The notes under the pieces: model-generated
Database searches by the model: none
Seen by the model: the letters and a program-made list of their open reading frames with translations, nothing else
Told to the model about the DNA's origin: nothing
Sequence record: PX436236.1
From: a phage
Strand: one strand, 5' to 3'
Length of the DNA: 64,000 bases
Made by a program: the position numbers and the translations under genes
Shown here: in pieces, positions 5,917 to 62,194 of the stretch
How positions within the stretch are numbered: the first letter of the stretch is position 1
Layout: each line of letters starts with the position of its first letter

Positions 5917-6147
5917 TTAATCCTTTGGAGTCAATTCAATAGTGAAGTAGAAATTAGCGTTCTCAACATGATAACGGTAATCTACGTTATTGTCAGGAGA
6001 AGTGAATTCAATATTCCTGACGTTAAGTGGGTCAATATCAATAGGAAGACCTTTAACATCCCGTAATATCAATTTAATAAAATAAGGGAGTGCTTCGAAG
6101 TCTTCCATTCCATCTAAAAGTGGAGTGATATTAATCTGATGTTCCAT
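5917..6147 (-). CDS. Hypothetical protein
   Basis: ORF 5917-6183; the internal Met at 6147 is the likelier start because 6183 would overlap gp55 by 53 nt. Confidence 0.3.
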
Positions 6148-6688
6148 ATAAAAAATCCAGTTCACCAACTTTAGGTTGGGCACTCTTATCAGACCCTGGT
6201 GCTTTAGTTAAAGAGGTTTCATACTGAGTCATTTTGTCGTAGATATCTTGGATAAAGGTTTCATCTGCAATACCTACCATGTCGTCATCATTACTGTCAT
6301 AGACATTATGGACGAAGTAGCTATATTTCTTTGCCATTTCTTTACGTTCTTTTTTGATACGCTGAACGAAGGCATTAAAACAAGCCATAGTGATATATGC
6401 ATGTGGGTTGTCGTATTTTGTTTCGTCGAAGTTGTGAAGACCTTTAATCGAAGCTTCGATTCCATCAGCAATCATTTCTTGCTTCCAAGATTGGGTATAT
6501 CCTGAGAAGTTGAAACGTTTACTTAGTCCTTCAGCAATGAGCATAATAGCCAAGCCGATAACGTCGTTCTGGCGAACTATTTTATTAGGATCGGTATTTT
6601 CTCTGAGTTCTGTTTTCCATTGGGTGATAGCTTTCAGAAGCTCCTTATTATTTACATAGTTATTTTTAGTCAGTTTAATTTCGGTCAT
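6131..6688 (-). CDS. 55: Late-transcription sigma factor gp55
   Basis: 185-aa ORF with ...NYVNNKELL...[52 protein letters not shown]...; T4 gp55-like. Confidence 0.9.
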
Positions 6689-6754
6689 TGTTACCTCAGA
6701 TAACTCAAATCATAGGTCTATTATATCATAGTATTTGAAGACCCTTTTAAAGCA

Positions 6755-7018
6755 TCAACGGAGTAAGCAATAAGCCTGAAATACGGTTTCAAGGATTTGT
6801 GTGAACTCGGAATAAGAAATTGTATCAGTACATCCATGTTCAGACATATATCCACAAAATTCTTTAAAAAGACCTGGATATTCGCGATGGTTGTATTTGG
6901 AAATATGAGACTTCCATACTAAAGAAGTCTCACCACAAACAAACTCAACATCCATACAGTTATCTATTAAGAAAAATCCGAGACCTTCGTAGGCGAGGGT
7001 GGTGGATATGGGTTTCAT
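6755..7018 (-). CDS. Hypothetical protein
   Basis: 87-aa ORF. Confidence 0.35.
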   Translation of the reverse strand: MKPISTTLAYEGLGFFLIDNCMDVEFVCGETSLVWKSHISKYNHREYPGLFKEFCGYMSEHGCTDTISYSEFTQILETVFQAYCLLR

Positions 7019-7281
7019 TGTAGGAATCGAGCTCCTTCCAATGCGTCATCTAGGTTATCGAACTCGTCGACGTAATCAACACCGCCAACCTCATCTTTTG
7101 CATACAGCCAATACTGTTTAAATTCGTATTCGATGATAAAGTGGTCACCCTCAATCTGGAGAGTCCCATCACCATTAAATTGAACTGCATAACCTGTAAA
7201 GCGGACATCATTCAAGAGTTCTTCTTTCATAGCAATCATTTCCAAGTTTTTATCGTAATTAGAGAGTTTTATTTTAATCAT
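7015..7281 (-). CDS. Hypothetical acidic protein
   Basis: 88-aa ORF, 4-nt overlap with neighbour. Confidence 0.35.
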   Translation of the reverse strand: MIKIKLSNYDKNLEMIAMKEELLNDVRFTGYAVQFNGDGTLQIEGDHFIIEYEFKQYWLYAKDEVGGVDYVDEFDNLDDALEGARFLQ

Positions 7282-7522
7282 TCAAATAATCCTCAAATTC
7301 ATTTAATGTCATGCCTTCATCCCAAGCTATTTTTGGGTCAGGCATTTTCATATAAGTGGTTTTAGAGCTTATAGGAAATATCCTGAAATCACGATGACTT
7401 CCACTTAGCATCTTAGCCGCTTTTATAATAGTTTCAATATTATTCATCATGGGTGTACGTTGGAACCCGGCTAAAGCTTTAAGGACTATTATAACCGATA
7501 CACCCTCAGGCAAATTATTCAT
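7274..7522 (-). CDS. Hypothetical protein
   Basis: 82-aa ORF. Confidence 0.35.
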   Translation of the reverse strand: MNNLPEGVSVIIVLKALAGFQRTPMMNNIETIIKAAKMLSGSHRDFRIFPISSKTTYMKMPDPKIAWDEGMTLNEFEDYLND

Positions 7523-7848
7523 TTAGCTGCCTTAACAATTTTCAGGTCGACGAATTTTTTCTTACGTTGGTTTTTCATACGACGGATAGTTTTATCCGTG
7601 ATTTCACCAGGGCACCAAGCTTTAGATTCTACACCAAAGGCAGCGACATCGAATTCATCGAGGATATATTGAACCAGGATTTCACGAATACCGTTCTTAC
7701 CAATTTTCTGGTCTTTAGAGTGCATGATAGGTAACAGTTCAGCAACCCATTGGTCAAGAACCTGAGGAGTTACAAAACCTGTTTTCATCAGTTCGTTTAC
7801 TTTATCGAAAGCGAAAGAGTTCAGTACGTTTTTAATAGCTTGTGACAT
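7519..7848 (-). CDS. Hypothetical protein (starts MSQAIKNV)
   Basis: Start at 7848 preceded by GAGGAAATTATT; the longer ORF to 8010 would run through an early promoter at about 7860-7900. Confidence 0.4.
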   Translation of the reverse strand: MSQAIKNVLNSFAFDKVNELMKTGFVTPQVLDQWVAELLPIMHSKDQKIGKNGIREILVQYILDEFDVAAFGVESKAWCPGEITDKTIRRMKNQRKKKFVDLKIVKAAK

Positions 7849-7916
7849 AATAATTTCCTCAGTTTTAAAGTTATAATCCGTAGGACCATTATACTCTGGT
7901 CCCAAGAGTTTGTAAA

Positions 7917-8165
7917 CTATTTTTGACTCATTGCACCTTTCCAGCCTTCGTACATAGATGCAGCTGAAATTAATAAAGCGCCTGAACAACTTGAATATTT
8001 GTGGTTCCAAAACCAGTTCAGAAAAACTTCGTCATCAATACCTTGGGCTATCATATTTTCAAAGAACTGACGACGAGCTTCAGCAATTCGCTGTGATAAT
8101 TTAGATTCAGGATTCATTTTAAATTTTCCAGTTTCCGTGTTTATCAATGAATTTAATCCAGTCAT
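7917..8165 (-). CDS. Hypothetical protein
   Basis: 82-aa ORF; true start may be the internal Met at 8117. Confidence 0.3.
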   Translation of the reverse strand: MTGLNSLINTETGKFKMNPESKLSQRIAEARRQFFENMIAQGIDDEVFLNWFWNHKYSSCSGALLISAASMYEGWKGAMSQK

Positions 8166-26974: not shown

Positions 26975-27274
26975 TTAGAAAGAACCAGAACCTCTAATTG
27001 TGTTCTGGCGACCTTTATTTTCTAATTCGGAGTGGTCGATTTCATATGCTTGTGCTACGCCAAAGGCCTTTTTAACTTTAGCTAAAGAACCTTTAGATGT
27101 AACAATATTAAAAGTATTACCTTTGGTAAAATCAACAAAATCGACTTGTACGCCCTGTTTACCGAGGCTTGCTACAATAGCATCAACATATTCTTGGTCT
27201 AAATTGCCTTGAACTCCAATTTGAAATGCTTTAGGAGCTTTGGCTTCTGTGATAAATTCTTGATAAGTTTTCAT
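26975..27274 (-). CDS. Internal-protein-type virion cargo protein (CTS MKTYQEFITEA)
   Basis: N-terminal capsid-targeting sequence shared with T4 IPI/II/III; 99 aa. Confidence 0.55.
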   Translation of the reverse strand: MKTYQEFITEAKAPKAFQIGVQGNLDQEYVDAIVASLGKQGVQVDFVDFTKGNTFNIVTSKGSLAKVKKAFGVAQAYEIDHSELENKGRQNTIRGSGSF

Positions 27275-27317
27275 TGTTATTCCTTAAGTTGATAGAAGTA
27301 TTCTATCACGGATTTAA

Positions 27318-27734
27318 TTAAGCGTAAATAGCCTTGCCATAATGTTTGTACCAGGTAGGACGCTGTGCAATTTTTTCATCCAAACGGGTCTGAGATATAG
27401 CAATAGAAGCTTCGTGTGGAGTATAGTCACCACGGAATTCCTGAGGAATGTCACTAATGTCCTGGACAGTAGTATCCTTGATATTAAAACCACGTTTTAA
27501 ACATTCGGCTATAAGCTCAATTTGTCGCTTACGTAAAAATTCAAGCTTATCGTAAAAGAATGTAACATGGCCTGTGCCAAGGATAAAAGTAGGACTGATT
27601 TTGAAATCACGGACATGTTTACCATTAGCAACATGCTTACGAACTGCACCGAAAACACGTGGTAATTCACGATATTCAGCCATTAAGTGTTGGTCAGCCA
27701 ATTCAGATACTAAGGTAAGGTTGATACGAGTCAT
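27318..27734 (-). CDS. denV: Endonuclease V (pyrimidine-dimer DNA glycosylase) DenV
   Basis: Start [35 protein letters not shown] at 27734 (GGAG RBS); 138 aa; T4 DenV-like. Confidence 0.9.
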
Positions 27735-27794
27735 TTTAGTGTTCTCCATGTTTGTATGAGAACACTATATCACAACTATCGTAAAAATAAACCG

Positions 27795-28097
27795 TTATTT
27801 ACCTTTAATTGCTTTAGCTGCTTCGGTAGCCGCTTGCTGAAGGTCATCCATAGACATACCGAACTTAGAAGCAAAGTTATCAATTTTCTTTTCGACAGAA
27901 TTCAAAGGCTTGGCCTGTTTACCTTCATTAGCGCCTGGGAGAGCGAGAATACGCTCTTTGTCAATATAAAGGCTTACAAGTTTCTTACGGTCTTTATCGG
28001 GCAAATCATGAAATGAATGGGCCTTTTTATTTACGGCGGCTTCTAATTTACCCGCACTTACTCGCGCTTCGGTGATAAATTCTTGATAGGTTTTCAT
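27795..28097 (-). CDS. ipII: Internal protein II-like (CTS-bearing)
   Basis: MKTYQEFITEARVSAGKLEAAV...; 100 aa; lies beside denV as T4 ipII does. Confidence 0.6.
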   Translation of the reverse strand: MKTYQEFITEARVSAGKLEAAVNKKAHSFHDLPDKDRKKLVSLYIDKERILALPGANEGKQAKPLNSVEKKIDNFASKFGMSMDDLQQAATEAAKAIKGK

Positions 28098-28138
28098 ATG
28101 TTTCCTTTAAATGTAAATAGGTCCGAGTATTCGCTTTA

Positions 28139-28735
28139 TTAATTACCACGGGCTGCATTAGCAACGGCGTAAGCGTACTGAATATTAGCGTCTTTAAACG
28201 TACCTTTAGAGGTATCTAGTTCTGCCTTAAAGCCGCCTTTAACCATAACATCAGCAAATTCTTTACGGAAAGTCATTGCATCAAGACCTTTCCATGCGGA
28301 TTTATGCTTGGCAAATTCAAGACCGGCGAAGTTAACTGCTTTAGCCAATTTATTATCAATAGTCCATTTACCTGCTTTAGGTACAAACACCGGGCCTTTC
28401 TGTTTAGAGAACAGTTTTAAATTCCAGCGACGAAGGTCACCGTCAGCTTTAACAAAAGCTGCGTCCAAGTTACTAGCAACAACATCTTGGATATGGGCAA
28501 ATTTAAGTCCATCAGCTTCAATATTTAGGTCGTTACGCCAGCGAAGTCCTTCCCAGGCGAAAGCTTTAAAGTCGGAAGCTTTTGTAGCCAAGTACCGTTC
28601 AATAGGAGCTGTTTTAGCGTCAAAACCGTTTCCTGGGTTGTCAACGCCGTTTCCTTTGTAAGTCCACTCATCTTTATTAATGCCTTGGACCTTTCCTACA
28701 GAAGCTTCGGCGATAAATTCTTTATACGTTTTCAT
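28139..28735 (-). CDS. ipIII: Internal protein III-like (CTS-bearing)
   Basis: MKTYKEFIAEASVGK...; 198 aa; between the ipII-like gene and e. Confidence 0.6.
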   Translation of the reverse strand: MKTYKEFIAEASVGKVQGINKDEWTYKGNGVDNPGNGFDAKTAPIERYLATKASDFKAFAWEGLRWRNDLNIEADGLKFAHIQDVVASNLDAAFVKADGDLRRWNLKLFSKQKGPVFVPKAGKWTIDNKLAKAVNFAGLEFAKHKSAWKGLDAMTFRKEFADVMVKGGFKAELDTSKGTFKDANIQYAYAVANAARGN

Positions 28736-28782
28736 ACGGGTTCCTTAAAGGAAAATATTTTAATTGGTCTGTTCAAGTAACT

Positions 28783-28816
28783 GTAGATATACTATCACAA
28801 TTCTAGGAGATGTAAA
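28783..28816 (-). promoter_or_regulatory. Early promoter GTTTACA-N16-TAGTAT (PeSL variant)
   Basis: Minus-strand promoter upstream of the ipIII-like gene. Confidence 0.4.
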
Positions 28817-28817
28817 C

Positions 28818-29216
28818 TTATTTATAGGTCTTCATCCAATTCTTGAACAAAGCCGCGACGTCTTTCTCTTTAACGTTCAGTTTAATGTCCAACATTTTAC
28901 CACCCGCTGCTCTGGTTTGGCGAATCTTAGCAGTACCGGTTTCGCCATTCCACTCAACATAATACTGTCCAGTGTTCATTGCAATACCATCACCGTAGTC
29001 TTCATTTTTAGAAGTGGTGAATGCTAGCTTCATAGTCTTAGATACATGAGCCTGCATGCCTGTCTGAAGGGCATTACGAACGCGAATAACCTGAGGAGTG
29101 GCCTGGGTCAAGTTCTCATTCAGTTCTTCAGTGAACTCTTCAGATTCAAACATCGCCAAAAGTTCTTTAGATGCAGGAATTACATTCTCTGCGATAAATT
29201 CATTATAAGTTTTCAT
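28818..29216 (-). CDS. Internal-protein-type virion cargo protein ([14 protein letters not shown]), no T4 counterpart recognised
   Basis: N-terminal CTS; 132 aa; start overlaps the 3' end of e. Confidence 0.55.
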
Positions 29217-36470: not shown

Positions 36471-36869
36471 TTATTTCATTTTTGCGAGGCAAATTTCATT
36501 GGCTTCCCATTGAGCTTGCTTAATAATAGCTTTGGATACAGGAGCCCTTTGGCCATAAGTTTTTGACGTTGAGAGAACAATATGTTTGTTTGCTTCATTA
36601 TGCCAGCCCCATGATTTTTCGCCATGAGTACCTTTAACTACAGCTGACACCTCAACAGAGCAACCACCATCAGAAATCTTGGTTTCGACAACCCATTCAT
36701 TTCTCTCAGCAGCTTCAATTTCTAATCTAGTTTTTTCTTCATACATCGCGGCCCAATCAGTTTTTGCCAAGTTGAAAGTAAGAGCTTTCTCTAGTTCTTT
36801 GGCATATTTTTGTTGTTCAGGTGTTAATGAATTATACAACTCTTGCATTTCTTTATCTTCGATATTCAT
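36471..36869 (-). CDS. Hypothetical protein
   Basis: 132-aa ORF; promoter TTTACA-N17-TATTAT with a GGGCTCAT/ATGAGCCC hairpin upstream. Confidence 0.4.
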   Translation of the reverse strand: MNIEDKEMQELYNSLTPEQQKYAKELEKALTFNLAKTDWAAMYEEKTRLEIEAAERNEWVVETKISDGGCSVEVSAVVKGTHGEKSWGWHNEANKHIVLSTSKTYGQRAPVSKAIIKQAQWEANEICLAKMK

Positions 36870-36927
36870 TATGTTCTCCTCAAATTATGGGCTCATAATA
36901 TCTTAATCATGAGCCCATGTAAACGTT

Positions 36928-37191
36928 TTATTTCATATTATTGAAATAATTTTCTGCATCAAAATCATTACCATGGTAAACTTTGGTAGACGATTTGGCG
37001 TAACCTTCAGCTGAGAACATATTAATCACAACTTTAATTGTATACCACTGTCCATCTTCATTACCCATTACTGCATAGGTTTCATACACCGGGTGTTCAG
37101 GACCGATAACCTTAATATCGTTAACTGTGGCACCAAATTCTTCCGGAACACATTTCATAAAGAAATTAAACACTTCACCATAATTATCCAT
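36928..37191 (-). CDS. Hypothetical small protein
   Basis: Start MDNYGEV at 37191 with AAGGAGAG SD. Confidence 0.4.
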   Translation of the reverse strand: MDNYGEVFNFFMKCVPEEFGATVNDIKVIGPEHPVYETYAVMGNEDGQWYTIKVVINMFSAEGYAKSSTKVYHGNDFDAENYFNNMK

Positions 37192-37215
37192 TTTACTCTC
37201 CTTCACTCTGTTGTT

Positions 37216-37255
37216 TTGATAGGTCTATAGTATCATGTTCTACGAAAGAGTAAAC
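37216..37255 (-). promoter_or_regulatory. PeSL-type early promoter/stem-loop repeat
   Basis: GTTTAC-N17-TACTAT with the conserved core. Confidence 0.5.
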
Positions 37256-37279
37256 ATCTTTTTTAAACCTTTTAGAAAC

Positions 37280-37307
37280 AAAAAAGGCCCAACCTTTCGG
37301 AAGGGCC
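37280..37307 (-). terminator. Hairpin terminator (GGCCC...GGGCC plus U-run)
   Basis: Same hairpin sequence as at 38418-38438; just after the stop at 37313. Confidence 0.5.
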
Positions 37308-37312
37308 TAGAA

Positions 37313-37867
37313 TCAGTTCTTGTAGAACCGGAATGGGTTTATGTGGAAGGCTAACATAGCCTTAGGGATTTTACGAGACAAAAGACTCTTAAGTTTCCAA
37401 CCACAGTATACACGAAGGTAAAAGGTAATCCCACCTACTTTAAGATACGGAACTGAAGCAAAGACTCCCCATGCTTCGTCATTCCACATCCATAACCATC
37501 CATGATGAGCTTTATCAGGAGAACCGGATTCAACGTCAGGATTACCACGATAATGGAATTCTGAGCTACAATCGCGTCCAAGTTTATGGTAAGCAAAGTT
37601 ATAAGCTTTATTTCGCCATAGCCAAGCTACCCTCTGGAGATAAACACCGCCCGGCATTTTCCTGATTTTAGCCCAACGTTTAATATGACCTTTGTCACCG
37701 TCAATTGGATTATCGTATGTCATCATCCAATCAAAGCCGTACGGTAATTTACCTGTCTTTTTATTGTGGAAAGGAACCACAAATGGGGCAAGGATAACAG
37801 CCAGAACCATAGAGATAAAATCTAGTGGGACCAACAGAACCCAACTCAAATATTTTAAAAGTTTCAT
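37313..37867 (-). CDS. Signal-anchored or membrane protein (184 aa)
   Basis: Start MKLLKYLSWVLLV at 37867; the longer ORF to 37972 would run through a terminator hairpin. Confidence 0.4.
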   Translation of the reverse strand: MKLLKYLSWVLLVPLDFISMVLAVILAPFVVPFHNKKTGKLPYGFDWMMTYDNPIDGDKGHIKRWAKIRKMPGGVYLQRVAWLWRNKAYNFAYHKLGRDCSSEFHYRGNPDVESGSPDKAHHGWLWMWNDEAWGVFASVPYLKVGGITFYLRVYCGWKLKSLLSRKIPKAMLAFHINPFRFYKN

Positions 37868-37885
37868 ATATTTCTCTAAGTTAAC

Positions 37886-37906
37886 CAAAAAGCCCCAGAT
37901 GGGGCT
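37886..37906 (-). terminator. Hairpin terminator AGCCCCA-tct-GGGGCT plus U-run
   Basis: Immediately after the internal-protein gene stop at 37911. Confidence 0.5.
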
Positions 37907-37910
37907 TTCG

Positions 37911-38375
37911 TTATTTGATTTGTTTAGCAGACCAGATACGGTCTTTGATGATTTTCTGAATATCTTCAACATACTCTAAGTCGTGAGCATGTGGATTATC
38001 TTTGAAGCTATGTGCTCGTGCCAGTTTCTGGCCTTCTGTTTTGATTACTAAAAGCTCTTTAAGAATTGCTTCATACTTAGAAATAATTCCTTTGGCGATA
38101 TTTTTTTCTTGAGCGGCTTTAGGGTCCGCTTTTGACGCAGGTGCTTTACCTGTAGCTTTCTGGAACAATTCACCTGATGCAGCTAGGCTTTTAAAAACTC
38201 GGCTAACAGTATTAGCATTAGTAAAACCTTCGGCTTTAAAATCTTTAATAAAACGGAAACGTTCTTCATCAGAGGCGTCTTTGTAAGAATATTTACCTGC
38301 TTGAATTGCTGCAATCGCAGCGGCTTTTACATCTGAACTAGATTGTTCAGTCAAAAATTCATTGTAAGTTTTCAT
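37911..38375 (-). CDS. Internal-protein-type virion cargo protein (CTS MKTYNEFLTEQ), no T4 counterpart recognised
   Basis: N-terminal CTS; 154 aa; own late promoter and flanking terminators. Confidence 0.55.
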   Translation of the reverse strand: MKTYNEFLTEQSSSDVKAAAIAAIQAGKYSYKDASDEERFRFIKDFKAEGFTNANTVSRVFKSLAASGELFQKATGKAPASKADPKAAQEKNIAKGIISKYEAILKELLVIKTEGQKLARAHSFKDNPHAHDLEYVEDIQKIIKDRIWSAKQIK

Positions 38376-38402
38376 ATTATTTCCTAAGTTAGTTTACTAC
38401 AT

Positions 38403-38410
38403 ATTTATAC
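38403..38410 (-). promoter_or_regulatory. T4-type late promoter TATAAATA
   Basis: Minus-strand TATAAATA about 25 nt upstream of the internal-protein gene start. Confidence 0.5.
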
Positions 38411-38438
38411 AAAAAAAGCCCAACCTTTCGGAAGGGCC
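38411..38438 (-). terminator. Hairpin terminator downstream of the tRNA cluster
   Basis: GCCC..GGGC hairpin with GNRA-type loop and a 7-nt U-run on the minus-strand transcript. Confidence 0.5.
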
Positions 38439-38489
38439 TTTAACCTAGGGTAACCTTGTCGGGGTTCCACCTGCTAGGCAAGTGTTTGT

Positions 38490-38562
38490 ACGAAACGCCG
38501 GGATTCGAACCCGGTTATTAAGTAGTTGACGCCACTCAATATTTTTAAAAGGCCATATCTCG
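38490..38562 (-). ncRNA. tRNA-like element (possible degenerate tRNA or stable RNA)
   Basis: Perfect T-arm CCGGG-TTCGAAT-CCCGG, 6/7 acceptor pairing and canonical 73-nt spacing, but D and anticodon stems pair poorly. Confidence 0.25.
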
Positions 38563-38820
38563 ACCATATCCGAACGTTCCGTCAAAAACGCTACTCGGCT
38601 TACGGCAAAGATATTTCCTCGAATCGATAATTCGGTGCGCCGTTTCTGCTGTGATGTAAGGGGACGTTAACAGATCGTAAAGATTTGTTAATGCCAGTCC
38701 TTACTCAGGGAACATCAGTCCGACGACTTACCGGTAGCGACCCGGTTTCTTGTTTGTTGCGCCGGTGAATGCTGGTAATCAGTCTTCATACGACGGCTTG
38801 ACTATATAATAGTCTTCATT

Positions 38821-38895
38821 TGGTATCCCGCCCTGGGATCGAACCAGGACCGCAAACTTAGAAGGATCGTATGCTATCCATTACACCAGCGGGAC
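38821..38895 (-). tRNA. tRNA, probable Arg (anticodon UCU)
   Basis: Cloverleaf on minus strand: acceptor GTCCCGC/GCGGGAT, T-arm CCTGG-TTCGATC-CCAGG, anticodon loop CTTCTAA, encoded CCA. Confidence 0.7.
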
Positions 38896-38900
38896 GTAGT

Positions 38901-38977
38901 TGGTGACCCAGACCAGATTTGAACTGGTAACCTTTCCCTTATGAGGGGACTGCTGCTAACCATTGAGCTACAGGGCC
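38901..38977 (-). tRNA. tRNA with anticodon CAU (Met or Ile2)
   Basis: Acceptor GGCCCTG, D-arm TAGCTCAATGGTTAGC, anticodon loop CTCATAA, T-loop TTCAAAT, encoded CCA. Confidence 0.7.
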
Positions 38978-38982
38978 TTAAA

Positions 38983-39255
38983 TCAAACTACAAATCCAGC
39001 AGGAGCATTATCATCTTTAGCCATGTGCTGAATTGTATGATAAGTCATTTCTTCAGGAGCAACCAGATAAGCCGCAGCGTTAACTAGTGGAATTATTTTT
39101 GGTTTAGCGAATGTGCTATCGGCAATTGCCATAAAGGGCTCGCCGTCGGTCTCAACTTCACCAAATTGACATTCATACGAAATAGAACAACGTTTGGTAG
39201 TTGTTGTCTTGGTTTCTGGGTCGTAAAAAGCTAATTTTAATACTAACATAAACAC
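38983..39255 (-). CDS. Hypothetical protein
   Basis: 90-aa ORF ending 6 nt upstream of the tRNA cluster. Confidence 0.35.
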   Translation of the reverse strand: MFMLVLKLAFYDPETKTTTTKRCSISYECQFGEVETDGEPFMAIADSTFAKPKIIPLVNAAAYLVAPEEMTYHTIQHMAKDDNAPAGFVV

Positions 39256-39428
39256 CTCAAATAAAATTAAGTAAAGTAAGTTTGATTAATAGACCTTGTC
39301 TATTATGAAAGGCTCTTTGAGGGAAGAACCTTTGGTAATAGAGGGTTACTTAATAATGTTAGAGTAATAATAACACATTACTCTTAAAGCATATTACTAT
39401 TTTTAGGAATAGTCTGGTCAAATTTGAT

Positions 39429-39719
39429 TCATTGTGGCCACATATTAATGTAATCAAGTTTAATAGAAGCAATCTTCAAAGGATTTTTAAAGATGTCGTA
39501 TTCGATCAATCCGTTTTCAGTTGCGGTGTAGAAAGTAAAGTTAACAGAATTATAACGGCGACCATTAACTTTTAGTTTAACGTCGCTTGAACTACGACCA
39601 ATATTAACCTGTTGGACATCAAGCACAGCACCTTTGCCAAAGTTGCGAATCAGTAGCTCTGCTGCAACCTGGTCTGAATTATAGCCATTCTCTGGATTAG
39701 TAACCTTAACGTATAGCAT
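39429..39719 (-). CDS. Hypothetical protein
   Basis: 96-aa ORF. Confidence 0.35.
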   Translation of the reverse strand: MLYVKVTNPENGYNSDQVAAELLIRNFGKGAVLDVQQVNIGRSSSDVKLKVNGRRYNSVNFTFYTATENGLIEYDIFKNPLKIASIKLDYINMWPQ

Positions 39720-40100
39720 TTAACCCTCGTCTACAATAGTATGGGTATTAGCATTAACAATCTGCCACCAGTCAAAACGATTGGAACCGTAAAGAGGGTT
39801 ATTCTCATTTTCTTTAATGATATCGCGCAGTTCATCTTCAGTAGCGGCCTTTGCGATTAAGTCGGCATAACCGCCACGAGGGTAATAGTTATCACCCGCA
39901 AAGAGCAAAAAGTTTGTTTTGATATTCTTGAATTCTTCAAGTGTAATAACGGACCCATTGGGTTGAACAATATCCACATAACTATACCCTAATTCCTGGG
40001 CTTTATCTACCGCCTCAAGCAGGGTGTCGTGTGCCCACCCAATTTGACAATCTGGTTTTTCAGATGGATTTGCCTGATAATCTGCATACACTTTATACAT
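39720..40100 (-). CDS. Hypothetical protein (126 aa)
   Basis: Start MYKVYADYQ at 40100 with AAGGTGAG SD. Confidence 0.4.
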   Translation of the reverse strand: MYKVYADYQANPSEKPDCQIGWAHDTLLEAVDKAQELGYSYVDIVQPNGSVITLEEFKNIKTNFLLFAGDNYYPRGGYADLIAKAATEDELRDIIKENENNPLYGSNRFDWWQIVNANTHTIVDEG

Positions 40101-40101
40101 T

Positions 40102-40287
40102 TTACTCACCTTTAGAGATTTTATCCATAACAAAAGAAATTGAACCAATTAAAAATGCCACTACTAAAGAGATTATATTCTCGGAAGTTGAAAGCATATC
40201 GAGCATGAATCCTGCAAACATACTAAAGCCAAAAGCGGTAACAGCGGCCAGTGCAGTAACATTTCTAATTAATTCACAACGTTTCAT
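40102..40287 (-). CDS. Small membrane protein (61 aa)
   Basis: MKRCELIRNVTALAAVTAFGFSMFAGFML...; GGAGAA SD; PeSL promoter upstream. Confidence 0.4.
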   Translation of the reverse strand: MKRCELIRNVTALAAVTAFGFSMFAGFMLDMLSTSENIISLVVAFLIGSISFVMDKISKGE

Positions 40288-40312
40288 TTTATTCTCCAAT
40301 CACTCATTTGTT

Positions 40313-40352
40313 TTGATAGGTCTATAGTATCACACCTATAGACCTTGTAAAC
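40313..40352 (-). promoter_or_regulatory. PeSL-type early promoter/stem-loop repeat
   Basis: GTTTACA-aggtctataggtgtga-TACTAT; spacer identical to the copy at 31939-31978. Confidence 0.5.
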
Positions 40353-40354
40353 AA

Positions 40355-40627
40355 TTATTTTAGATAAATTGCATACTTTTTATAACCAGCTGTTTCGTGA
40401 CGCAACCCTTTTTCATTAGCAAAACGTTCAATATTGTTAATTTGATTCTGGTCGAGTTCTGAAGTATCAAAAACAAAAAAGTTTCGCTTATTGCCTAAAG
40501 TTACGTGATTAGTCAAATCGATGTTATAGAGATGATTTATATCATCAATCATAGTCTTAACAGATTTGTTAATTTTTACTTCCTCATTAAGAATAGATTC
40601 AGCGATAAATTCTTGATAAGTTTTCAT
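40355..40627 (-). CDS. ipI: Internal protein I-like (CTS MKTYQEFIAES)
   Basis: N-terminal CTS; 90 aa; lies beside 57B as T4 ipI does. Confidence 0.55.
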   Translation of the reverse strand: MKTYQEFIAESILNEEVKINKSVKTMIDDINHLYNIDLTNHVTLGNKRNFFVFDTSELDQNQINNIERFANEKGLRHETAGYKKYAIYLK

Positions 40628-40650
40628 TTTGATTTCCGTGCGGTTAGTTT

Positions 40651-40692
40651 GTTTACAAGGTCTATAGTATCATGCCTATAGACCTTGTAAAC
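40651..40692 (-). promoter_or_regulatory. Palindromic PeSL promoter
   Basis: GTTTACAAGGTCTATAG-gcatgatac-CTATAGACCTTGTAAAC near-perfect palindrome carrying GTTTAC on both strands. Confidence 0.45.
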
Positions 40693-40703
40693 ACCTTTTT
40701 AAA

Positions 40704-41396
<693 letters not shown>

Positions 41397-44114: not shown

Positions 44115-44137
44115 TATAAATATTAATATTATTTATA
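44115..44137. promoter_or_regulatory. Divergent late promoters: TATAAATA on plus (44115-44122, for gp53) and on minus (44130-44137, for gp4)
   Basis: Two TATAAATA boxes in opposite orientation inside a 45-bp spacer flanked by mirror-image GGAGGCACT-ATG initiation regions. Confidence 0.55.
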
Positions 44138-59614: not shown

Positions 59615-61204
59615 ATGATTAACAAATTGGAACTTAGTGAGTTACCATTTGTTGACGGCGTACCTGATGCTCCTCAAAAGCGTATCCAATGGATACGCGA
59701 GGGTGATTGTATGTCTGCAGCAAAAACAAAATATGGCAATGAAGGTAATTTGAACGCTGCTGCTTTAGGAGTTCAGAAAAACGTTGAAGCTCTTGATGCG
59801 AATGATTTGAAAACCGCAGATAAAGTTAACGAACTGGTAGAAAACGTTAATAATATCAATGATGCCTTAGAAATGGCTACGGATATTTCCGTCATCCAAC
59901 AAATTGAGAAAAACCGTGTTGATATCGTAGAGCTTAAGAGAGTAGAAGGCGAAACCACTACTGGGCTAAACAATTTAACCATAAATTTAGACCACCTAAA
60001 AGAAGACGTTGGTTACCATGACCCTTTACAAGATGGCCCATATTTAACTGTACGTGAAAATATTGTTCTTCTTAAAACCGAAATAGGTCATTATGAAAAC
60101 CAGGATATAAATGGTAATCCGTTGCCTCCTGGTGAAACCAGCGAAGCCACCGGTATGAAACGTCGCATCATTGATAATACCACCCAATTGGTCGACCATC
60201 GTCTTCGCATTGATACCCTTGAAAGGAATTATGAAGATTCTGACGTCGGGCAACTAGGTATTAAATTAAATGAAATTCGTGCTGAACTTGGGCCCCATTC
60301 CGATACGGTAGGTAAACAACAGGCTTATACCCGAATTTCTGTATTAGAAACGGCTGCAATTAATTTCAATACATCTATCGACGAAATTAAGACTAATATT
60401 GATTTCTCCGGTATGCCTATAAAGGACCGAGTAACTACTTTAGAAAGCAAAACTCTTACCCTAGAAAATTCAGTCAACGTTGATTTAAAACCTCGTGTAA
60501 CATCAATTGAAACCCAAATAGGTTCTGAATCAACTCCTACTTCTATTAATGGACGTTTAAGCGGCCTTCGTACTGATGTAAATGACCTTAAAACCATAGT
60601 GGGTGTTAGTTCAAGTGATGGCTTACGTTTCCAAGTTACTGATATCAACCGCCGTTTAGGTAGTGAAGTATCTCCGGCAGCTGGGACCATTAATAAGCGT
60701 TTAAATGACGTTATTATCCAAGCAAACCAATCTACTTCATCTATCCAGGATATTCAAGTAGAAATTGGAAATAACCAATCCGGTATTAAGGGTACTTTAC
60801 TTAAACTCACCAATAAGGTTGACGGGACAAACCCTAACGGTACTACTGTAGAAGAACGTGGTCTTATTAACGCGGTTACTTCTTTAGAAACCCAGATGTT
60901 AGGTAAGTTGAATGATGCCCCTTCCGATGGTAAGCTTTATGCTCGTCGTAATGCTACGTGGACCGAAGTTCCTAACGTTTCTACTGAAATAGGGACCGTT
61001 AAAGCTGATTTAGTTGTTACCGATGGTAATGTGGCAGCTTTAACTTCTAGAGTTACTACAGCAGAAGATAAAATCACTGCATTAGAAACTGAACTTGCTA
61101 AACGTCCACCAGTGGCTCCAGTTGCTGATGGACTTCCATATGTTCTTGTTGATAATGCGTGGGTGCTATTGTCAGATTTTGTGACTTTAAACCCAGCACC
61201 ATAA
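59615..61204 (+). CDS. wac: Fibritin (whisker protein wac)
   Basis: Long coiled-coil with repeated segments and foldon-like C-terminus ...DGLPYVLVDNAWVLLSDFV. Confidence 0.8.
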   Translation: MINKLELSELPFVDGVPDAPQKRIQWIREGDCMSAAKTKYGNEGNLNAAALGVQKNVEALDANDLKTADKVNELVENVNNINDALEMATDISVIQQIEKNRVDIVELKRVEGETTTGLNNLTINLDHLKEDVGYHDPLQDGPYLTVRENIVLLKTEIGHYENQDINGNPLPPGETSEATGMKRRIIDNTTQLVDHRLRIDTLERNYEDSDVGQLGIKLNEIRAELGPHSDTVGKQQAYTRISVLETAAINFNTSIDEIKTNIDFSGMPIKDRVTTLESKTLTLENSVNVDLKPRVTSIETQIGSESTPTSINGRLSGLRTDVNDLKTIVGVSSSDGLRFQVTDINRRLGSEVSPAAGTINKRLNDVIIQANQSTSSIQDIQVEIGNNQSGIKGTLLKLTNKVDGTNPNGTTVEERGLINAVTSLETQMLGKLNDAPSDGKLYARRNATWTEVPNVSTEIGTVKADLVVTDGNVAALTSRVTTAEDKITALETELAKRPPVAPVADGLPYVLVDNAWVLLSDFVTLNPAP

Positions 61205-61209
61205 TAAAA

Positions 61210-61227
61210 GGGCTTCGGCCCTTTTTT
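61210..61227 (+). terminator. Hairpin terminator GGGC-ttcg-GCCC plus TTTTTT
   Basis: Directly after the wac stop. Confidence 0.55.
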
Positions 61228-61229
61228 GC

Positions 61230-61237
61230 TATAAATA
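61230..61237 (+). promoter_or_regulatory. T4-type late promoter TATAAATA upstream of gp13
   Basis: Exact TATAAATA 22 nt before the gp13 ATG. Confidence 0.55.
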
Positions 61238-61258: not shown

Positions 61259-62194
61259 ATGGCAAGTGAATCATATAACCCTAAGCAACTCAAGGACGCA
61301 ATCCTGCGCCGCCTGGGTGCACCGATTACGAATATTGAAGTAACTACAGACCAAGTATACGATTGCATCCAGCGCGCCCTGGAGCTCTACGGTGAGTATC
61401 ATTATAACGGCTATAACAAAGGTTATCAGGCTTTTTATATAGGCCATGATGACGAAGAAAAATTCCGTAACGGCGTATTTGACCTTAAAGGCCGTAATAT
61501 ATTTGCAGTAACACAAATTTTAAGAACTAATGTAGGTTCTTTAACATCTATGGATGGCCAAGCGACTTATCCATGGTTTACTGATTTTGTATTAGGCCTA
61601 GCTGGTATTAACGGCGGTCTTGGAACTTCTTGTAACAGCTTTGGGCCTAATGCCTTTGGTGCTGACCTCGGGTATTTTACACAATTAATGCAATATCGTT
61701 CTATGATGCAGGACCTTTTGGTTCCATTGCCTGATTATTGGTATAACGATGCCACTGAACAGTTGAAGGTAATGGGTAACTTTGTTAAAGGCGATTTTAT
61801 TGTAATTGAAGTTTATACTCGCTCTTTTAATGGGGTCGATTCTATGGTAGGAAATACCGCAGGATATGGATATGCCTCTGGTGGGTGCGACGAAAATGAA
61901 TGGAGCCCCGGAGCTATTTGGGATAACCCGGCTCGTCGTATTTCAGGTATGAGGGCAGGTGAAGACCTTGGTTTGCAAGATGGTTCATATAATAACCGTT
62001 GGGTCAAAGATTATGCGACGGCATTGGTTAAAGAAGTCAATGGTAATATTTTGGCCAAACACCAAGGCATGCAACTTGCGGGTGGAACCACTGTAGATGG
62101 TATTCGATTGATTGAAGAAGCTCGTTTAGAAAAAGAACGCCTTCGCGAAGAATTAGATTTACTCGACCCACCAACACCTATTTTAATTGGATAA
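61259..62194 (+). CDS. 13: Neck protein gp13
   Basis: ...[18 protein letters not shown]...[13 protein letters not shown]...; T4 gp13-like. Confidence 0.9.

Follow-up and report, generated by a model that had tools for sequence, protein, structure and literature searches.

Gene order and signals between the tRNA cluster and e.8

The phage DNA of sequence record PX436236.1 was analysed as a single stretch of 64,000 nucleotides (the window; positions refer to it). Beside its tRNA cluster the window carries a gene for a 154 amino acid protein which starts with a capsid-targeting sequence (CTS), lies behind a T4-type late promoter motif and stands between two terminator-like hairpins. Over 36900-39100 the sequence identity is 99.3% with Escherichia phage WG01 and with vB_EcoM-E33, and 98.5% with QL01. 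These three phages are members of the genus Dhakavirus (Tevenvirinae), and the window represents a WG01-like Dhakavirus, a relative of T4. All genes in this part of the window are encoded on the minus strand, in the order tRNA-Met, tRNA-Arg, rnaD and rnaC homologues, hairpin T1, TATAAATA, the 154 amino acid gene, hairpin T2, a DUF7338 gene, hairpin T1', an early-type promoter and e.8. The features are as follows.

38977-38901, minus strand: tRNA-Met
38895-38821, minus strand: tRNA-Arg
38489-38750, minus strand: rnaD and rnaC homologues (rnaD about 38750-38634, rnaC about 38631-38489), by alignment with the annotated T4 rnaD and rnaC
38411-38441, minus strand: T1 hairpin and U-run, by folding; orthologue of the T4 hairpin that follows rnaC
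38402-38409, minus strand: TATAAATA, candidate late promoter -10 element, by motif search; predicted transcript start near 38396
38376-38401, minus strand: leader of 26 nucleotides with the ribosome-binding site AGGAAA (38385-38380), from the sequence
37911-38375, minus strand: gene of the 154 amino acid candidate internal head protein, by its open reading frame (ORF); CTS codons at 38375-38346
37884-37909, minus strand: T2 hairpin and U-run, by folding
37862-37883, minus strand: downstream copy of repeat D3 (DUF7338 leader, ribosome-binding site and ATGAAA), by repeat search and comparison with phage JS98 and locus L028
37313-37867, minus strand: DUF7338 gene, 184 amino acids, by its match to PF24027
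37278-37308, minus strand: T1', the second copy of T1, with U-run, by folding and repeat search
37191-36928, minus strand: e.8

A sequence-only reading of this DNA had described a self-contained, insulated late cassette. Its main parts are confirmed: the CTS-bearing gene at 37911-38375 is present on the minus strand, the upstream hairpin which it placed at 38411-38438 and the downstream one which it placed at 37886-37906 both fold, and the first hairpin does recur as an exact copy at 37286-37307. The late promoter had been put at 38403-38410; the motif is there, displaced by one base, at 38402-38409 on the minus strand and one base past the U-run of T1.

The exact TATAAATA is found 26 nucleotides 5' of the ATG, within the T4 late promoter spacing of 20 to 40 nucleotides. 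Late promoters of this type have TATAAATA and no need of a -35 element. The window carries genes of the late machinery, namely gene 55 for the late sigma factor gp55 (6134-6688) and gene 45 (449-1144). TATAAATA occupies the same fixed position in 11 of the 15 tabulated gene starts (Dhakavirus and Tequatrovirus), and is likewise present in the locus of the Jiaodavirus KpV477. The heptamer ATAAATA is invariant in 12 loci, preceded by T or, in Mosigvirus-type loci, by A. The leaders belong to at least four sequence types with the position of TATAAATA unchanged; a leader identical to that of the window serves DUF7338 in locus L028, and one differing by two bases serves DUF7338 in JS98. A second composite of a terminator hairpin (AAAAGGGCTTCGGCCCTTTT) and an abutting TATAAATA is present at 61206-61237 on the plus strand, between a fibritin-like ORF (59615-61204) and a gp13-like ORF (61259-62194), and a hairpin followed by TATAAATA therefore appears to be the normal syntax of late units in this phage. 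A divergent intergenic region has two TATAAATA motifs at 44115-44137, one on each strand, which face each other at a distance of 8 nucleotides and are both followed by GGAGGCACTATG; the pair is read as putative symmetric late promoters with near-identical leaders.

The stem of T1 (38441-38414) contains two U-U mismatches and one G-U pair and is capped by a GAAA tetraloop; the U-run extends to 38411. The folding energy of T1 is -15.2 kcal/mol (z = -1.98; 10 of 200 shuffled sequences as stable), so that the fold taken alone is only moderately unusual. T2 is formed by AAAGCCCC-AUCU-GGGGCUUU at 37909-37888, followed by UUUUU (-15.8 kcal/mol, z = -4.2; none of 200 shuffled sequences as stable), and T1' folds with -17.4 kcal/mol and also has a U-run. 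All three have the G+C-rich stem-loop and immediate U-run of predicted intrinsic (rho-independent) terminators. The minus-strand hairpins were not picked up by a consensus terminator scan, since their extended A-U stems consume the U-run, and folding was used instead; in the record of phage PhAPEC2, ARNold terminators are annotated at the equivalent positions. Among 11 variants of the T1 stem there is one compensatory change from C-G to G-C, and 85.5% of the cells in the alignment are paired, against at most 68% in a control in which the partners were slid. The stem of T2 is conserved in relatives and its loop is variable. The loop (37895-37902; about 2010-2020 of locus L005) has the sequence ATCT here; QL01 and IME341 have GTCT, and PSD2002 has the reverse complement, AGAT. 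The stem being constant, this pattern suggests loop inversion through template switching within the hairpin.

The hairpin sequence occurs exactly at 37286-37307 and with one mismatch at 38417-38438, where no copy with up to three mismatches is expected by chance. It is part of a 31 nucleotide direct repeat (D1; 37278-37308 and 38409-38439, 30 of 31 positions identical, spaced 1131 bp). Nested in D1 is a 22 nucleotide repeat (D3; 37862-37883 and 38370-38391, 82% identical, spaced 508 bp), which consists of the leader, ribosome-binding site and ATGAAA of the two successive genes and brackets the internal protein ORF together with T2.

The second of these genes (37867-37313, minus strand) encodes a 184 amino acid protein with a hydrophobic N-terminus which belongs to DUF7338 (PF24027, E = 4.4e-63; phrog_2143). 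It starts 20 nucleotides past the stem of T2, inside the bracket formed by T1 and T1'. No TATAAATA was found between T2 and its start, and a promoter scan near the gene gave one weak (9/12) sigma-70-like site only, at 38024-37995 inside the internal protein gene. In JS98 the DUF7338 gene is directly behind T1, TATAAATA and leader. As a promoterless gene right behind T2 it makes read-through of T2 likely; T2 is probably leaky, and is predicted to be either the 3' end or an attenuator of the internal protein transcript. Insulation, as claimed by the sequence-only reading, is thus found in part: there are hairpins on both sides of the gene, but at T2 the unit is incompletely closed. With the third hairpin following DUF7338, the unit enclosed by the repeated hairpin consists here of two genes, and T1' is predicted to end it ahead of the e.8 early promoter.

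The 154 amino acid protein and its family

The ORF at 37911-38375 encodes a protein starting with MKTYNEFLTEQ. Its CTS, MKTYNEFLTE, is identical in seven of ten residues to that of T4 internal protein (IP) III, MKTYQEFIAE, with Tyr4 and Phe7 kept. Experiments on IPIII have mapped capsid targeting to residues 4 and 7 and processing to residues 8 and 10 (PMC9026906; see also PMC8442874), and all four determinants are retained (Tyr4, Phe7, Leu8 and Glu10). The L/I-x-E motif of the prohead protease gp21 is present as Leu8-Thr9-Glu10, and a second LxE site ends at Glu107; the annotation of WG01 (99.3% identical) includes gp21. If the protein is cleaved after Glu10, the mature form would have 144 amino acids, a predicted pI of 9.5 and 21 lysines, and would be basic and Lys-rich, in composition resembling the T4 internal proteins.

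The protein is a member of phrog_2280 (E = 5.7e-53), a family labelled as of unknown function, and matches a phrog annotated as internal virion protein over residues 1-44 only (E = 6.8e-4). Pfam gave nothing above threshold, the sub-threshold matches to LAMB1, GemA and MerR (E >= 0.06) being noise. In alignments with T4 IPIII, T4 IPI and the five other CTS-bearing ORFs of the window the alignable part is limited to the first ten residues. An AlphaFold2 model built on eight aligned sequences is all-helical, with an N-domain of three helices joined by a Lys/Pro/Ala linker to a long helical hairpin (predicted local distance difference test, pLDDT, 74.5; predicted template modelling score, pTM, 0.45). 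Foldseek returned its own family alone from BFVD and, from the PDB, nothing below E = 0.85, with generic helical bundles only.

By tblastn a full or partial homologue was detected in 511 phage records, in 470 of them over at least 80% of the length, and in the GenBank records whose annotation was examined it is called a hypothetical protein; a search of 5.8 billion proteins yielded 9 clusters only. The cassette is an ordinary feature of the T4-like phage group, and its gene family is unannotated. Two further proteins encoded at the same site in other phages, JS98 orf135 (E = 1e-59) and PhAPEC2_133 (E = 2e-54), also belong to phrog_2280, so that the site is occupied by paralogues of a single family that have diversified. 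PhAPEC2_133 had also been considered as a DUF7338 gene, which was rejected, as it is a second CTS protein of phrog_2280. The literature search found no mention of RB32ORF133c (the homologue in phage RB32), RB69ORF149c or the CTS variants, and the RB69 paper is without virion proteomics. Predicted tryptic peptides of the KpV477-type homologue had no match in parts of the supplements of a Jiaodavirus study (PMC13119998), which is uninformative. In KpV477 itself (locus L014, 2400-3060) the homologue stops in frame after 78 amino acids, and behind it come more coding sequence and a hairpin whose U-run is poor. The stop is conserved in 17 listed records of Klebsiella and Raoultella phages (at least 98.7% identity over the 78 amino acids), and the gene may be a split or shortened allele.

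The start pattern encoding a CTS is found six times exactly in the window, where 0.2 are expected. The six ORFs, all on the minus strand, start at 27274, 28097, 28735, 29216, 38375 (the cassette) and 40627, the others thus lying in 26975-29216 and 40355-40627. No exact TATAAATA is present within 130 nucleotides 5' of the other five starts; early-type GTTTACA...TA(n)TAT motifs are found upstream of 28735 and 40627, the only two of the five with a recognisable promoter motif. The gene at 40627-40355 is that of the ipI locus and encodes a 90 amino acid protein (MKTYQEFIAE; phrog_7673, internal head protein). At 40316-40693 (minus strand) it is placed between two copies of an early promoter plus palindrome, GTTTACAAGGTCTATAGG..TGATACTATAGACC, the upstream one with an 18 bp palindrome at 40650-40693, a pair which resembles the promoter-early stem-loop (PeSL) elements discussed below. 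The ORF at 29216-28818 (132 amino acids, CTS-bearing, phrog_15461) has the C-terminus ...NWMKTYK-stop; its ATGAAGACCTATAAATAA at 28818-28835 (minus strand) resembles an in-frame fused remnant of the start of a further CTS gene, and this region supplies one of the seven TATAAATA matches in the window.

Variation of the site among related phages

The site was compared in 20 loci from GenBank phages and IMG/VR (those given as L plus a number are our locus designations). At least eight alternative layouts were found after T1, made up of T1, TATAAATA, a phrog_2280 gene and/or DUF7338, and hairpins. The arrangements, in the direction of transcription, are the following.

T4: rnaC, orthologous hairpin (AGCCCCGACCGAAAGGTTGGGGCT plus T-run), directly the e.8 promoter; no cassette
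RB32, L027, L018: T1, TATAAATA, homologue (about 70% amino acid identity), second T1 copy, T4-like downstream sequence
PhAPEC2, ZN18 and similar: T1, (A/T)ATAAATA, homologue, T1 copy, AATAAATA, second CTS gene (187 amino acids, RB69ORF149c-like), another hairpin
JS98: T1, TATAAATA, leader differing in two bases, DUF7338, T1 copy, TATAAATA, CTS gene of 205 amino acids (orf135), another hairpin
PSD2002, IME341: layout of the window with DUF7338 internally deleted
L015, L016, L020, L028: further variants
Klebsiella phage KpV477 (Jiaodavirus): unrelated hairpin with a UUCG loop, TATAAATA, MKFKEFLAE gene homologous in the N-domain

The comparison with related phages which the sequence-only reading had proposed as a check thus shows the site empty in T4 and, in RB32, filled between two T1 copies. 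Since T4 has the hairpin after rnaC without having the cassette, T1 is best seen as the resident terminator of the tRNA-rnaD-rnaC unit, a shared junction and not a property of the cassette. What had been called self-contained behaves as a module beside the tRNA cluster, with an upstream hairpin that is part of the neighbouring unit.

The order hairpin, TATAAATA, capsid-targeting gene and hairpin recurs in four genera. When 12 filled sites are aligned with T4, the hairpin and ATAAATA are invariant, and the crossover with the empty T4 sequence falls inside GGTAT, right after the U-run. In vB_EcoM_005 the leader and the first 39 nucleotides of JS98 orf135 are fused to the body of the 154 amino acid family of phrog_2280. 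The gene order varies too, with the internal protein gene before DUF7338 in the window and DUF7338 before the 205 amino acid internal protein gene in JS98. At least part of the 2.2 kb region is matched by 764 records, versus about 511 with the homologue. The cassette concept is based on this presence/absence polymorphism, the flanking direct repeats, the architecture shared by four genera and the mosaic junctions, which support the gene as an insertion/deletion module beside the tRNA cluster. Recombination between the copies of D3 would regenerate the JS98/L028 layout, and between those of D1 a T4-like empty site.

As to the neighbourhood, Rfam (E-value mode, 36500-40500) recognised the two tRNAs only and no family for rnaC, rnaD or the hairpins; a match to sroH (E = 0.55) was dismissed. 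About 70 nucleotides that separate tRNA-Arg from rnaD (region 38489-38820) are without counterpart in T4, and rnaC is entirely missing from JS98. The G+C profile of the cassette is unremarkable and forms no compositional island, so that there is no sign of an origin outside the T-even gene pool. The ipI region (40355-41159 in the window; 6455-8059 in locus L029) differs from that of WG01, which has two extra small ORFs (ORF146, ORF147) between the 90 amino acid Ip9 gene and 57B, plus an Ip7 gene, and the phage of the window is therefore distinct from WG01.

Interpretation and relation to known systems

The unit is in our judgement probably a late-expressed cassette that encodes a polymorphic internal head protein and is situated in a hyperplastic site right after the terminator of the tRNA-rnaD-rnaC unit. 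In the mechanism that we propose, T1 would halt transcripts arriving from the tRNA/rnaC unit and RNA polymerase programmed by gp55 would initiate about 6 nucleotides downstream of TATAAATA, near 38396. The transcript of about 510 nucleotides would end mostly at T2, and partial read-through would feed the promoterless DUF7338 gene and end at T1'. The CTS, through Tyr4 and Phe7, would direct the 154 amino acid product to the scaffolding core of the prohead, gp21 would cut after Leu8-Thr9-Glu10, and the basic mature protein of about 16 kDa would be retained in the head and injected with the DNA; host takeover, anti-defence or association with DNA would be its most plausible role. Over evolution the unit would be gained, lost and re-assorted by homologous recombination. 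The repeated terminator hairpins would provide its 3' arm and its outer arms, with the common promoter, leader and CTS sequence as the 5' arm.

A number of observations weigh against this interpretation, and three alternatives were considered. With 7 occurrences against 7.5 expected, TATAAATA shows no enrichment in the window, so that its significance rests on its positional conservation in homologous loci, and Mosigvirus-type alleles carry AATAAATA in its place. T1 is here a weakened hairpin, imperfect by its mismatches and G-U pair and with a z-score of -1.98. The position of DUF7338 behind T2 implies that there is no insulation at the 3' end of the unit, and read-through of T2 is needed for this gene anyway. 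As T4 RNAC and RNAD are classed as late RNAs (PMC9697503), transcription upstream is moreover active late. All this would suit a gene without transcription of its own, for which TATAAATA is weak or fortuitous, transcripts read through from tRNA-rnaD-rnaC over a leaky T1, and the hairpins are mainly processing or stabilising 3' structures. We regard this as quite unlikely in view of the invariant ATAAATA, which keeps a fixed distance from the U-run in four genera while the leaders have diverged, of the same hairpin and TATAAATA syntax before the gp13-like late gene, and of the T1 stem preserved via a compensatory change. It is also conceivable that the product is not packaged, and that its MKTY... 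start is a recombination relic carried with the shared leader by what is a cytoplasmic protein. Exchange of the leader and CTS from gene to gene is demonstrable, and CTS-start relics are found nearby, as at the end of ORF 29216-28818. The literature search found no transcript, virion-proteome or genetic data on a member of the family, and the mature part has neither similarity to characterised internal proteins nor an informative fold match. Since the known internal proteins are mutually unrelated beyond the CTS (PMC3012670), this missing similarity is not disqualifying. On the other side, the CTS is not simply dragged along, as DUF7338 lacks one in spite of sharing this leader in JS98; the full-length homologues and two paralogous phrog_2280 subfamilies keep Tyr4, Phe7, Leu/Ile8 and Glu10 at identities of about 70% or less, and the composition is basic and Lys-rich. 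A relic start is for us the very improbable case.

The polymorphism of the site could finally be due to deletions only, by slippage between terminator repeats in an ancestral multi-gene array, with no gain or exchange. The 154 amino acid family is at one and the same site in every locus examined, which is a point against a mobile cassette and one in favour of deletion; the internal deletions of DUF7338 in PSD2002 and IME341 are plain ones, and the smaller number of records with the homologue than with a match to part of the region also counts for it. The sequences would fit allelic exchange or loss as well as movement between sites, and insertion as well as deletion. The different gene orders in the window and JS98 are not accounted for by deletion, and the chimeric junctions between leader/CTS and body require recombination between different alleles. 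We therefore hold deletion as the sole process to be unlikely and retain the recombining late cassette as the preferred interpretation.

Of all phage products, injected internal proteins are the first that the host encounters, and T4 IPI*, the one internal protein of known function, is a dedicated anti-restriction factor. It is a tentative idea, which we would at present sooner doubt than adopt, that hairpin, TATAAATA, leader and CTS start constitute a late-gene counterpart of PeSL, a docking module for exchanging and stacking genes of injected head proteins at a fixed site in at least four Tevenvirinae genera, with phrog_2280 being diversifying injected effectors, possibly anti-defence, of which each phage has one to two paralogues. 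Polymorphic CTS-bearing internal proteins, T4 late promoters, intrinsic terminators and modular shuffling mediated by terminators and promoters are all established. The modest novelty lies in phrog_2280 as a candidate internal protein family, in the rnaC-e.8 junction as a second internal protein hot-spot and in the late-promoter analogue of PeSL. By this phrog_2280, whose 154 amino acid subfamily is present in about 510 phage genomes, gains a testable role as a packaged and injected protein, and there would be a second swapping hot-spot besides the ipI locus, with concrete repeats of 31 and 22 nucleotides. For annotation it means that, in therapeutic phages of the T-even-like type, hypothetical protein genes beside the tRNA cluster probably encode virion components. 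Polymorphic internal protein genes of T-even phages have reportedly been described by Repoila et al. in 1994 and by Mullaney and Black in 1996.

T4 IPI, IPII and IPIII (PMC3012670, PMC9026906, PMC8442874) share with the 154 amino acid protein the N-terminal ten-residue CTS and the L/I-x-E motif of gp21, and on both sides the mature part is small, basic and not conserved and the gene is found in a variable region of a T-even genome. In contrast, the mature region of the 154 amino acid protein is dissimilar to those of IPI, IPII and IPIII, and its gene is located between rnaC and e.8 and not at ipI (57B-tRNA.4) or the ipII/ipIII loci; its family carries no function label, and packaging is in its case a prediction from sequence. 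A close precedent is RB32ORF133c (NC_008515), a direct homologue at the same site, already described in its GenBank note as "flanked by 34 bp imperfect direct repeat". There the two repeats flank a single gene, whereas in the window the downstream hairpin is a different one and the repeat copy follows the second gene; neither a function nor a CTS or promoter is given in the RB32 record. The T4 late unit boundary between wac and gene 13 has hairpin, U-run and TATAAATA within a few bases as here, but separates conserved core genes and has no association with indels.

The PeSL cassettes of T4-type phages (Arbiol et al. 2010, PMC2839356; Comeau et al. 2014, PMC4122927) are a close relative in organisation. 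In both systems non-essential genes of hyperplastic regions are flanked by repeats of a composite of terminator stem-loop and promoter, close relatives differ by indels with breakpoints in these repeats or in the stretch from promoter to ATG, and the modules are self-sufficient in transcription, which is a prediction in the present case. Repeated flanking copies whose recombination explains the indels are likewise found here, in D1 and D3 and in the layouts of T4, RB32, JS98 and PSD2002. The strong sigma-70-like early promoter that accompanies the PeSL stem-loop is missing, no -35/-10 pair being reported at this place; the promoter is of the late TATAAATA type, which is mentioned in neither of the two PeSL papers, and the CTS-coding sequence adds to the 5' homology arm. 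By this comparison the shuffling of the cassette appears functionally analogous to that of PeSL, without the cassette being a PeSL itself.

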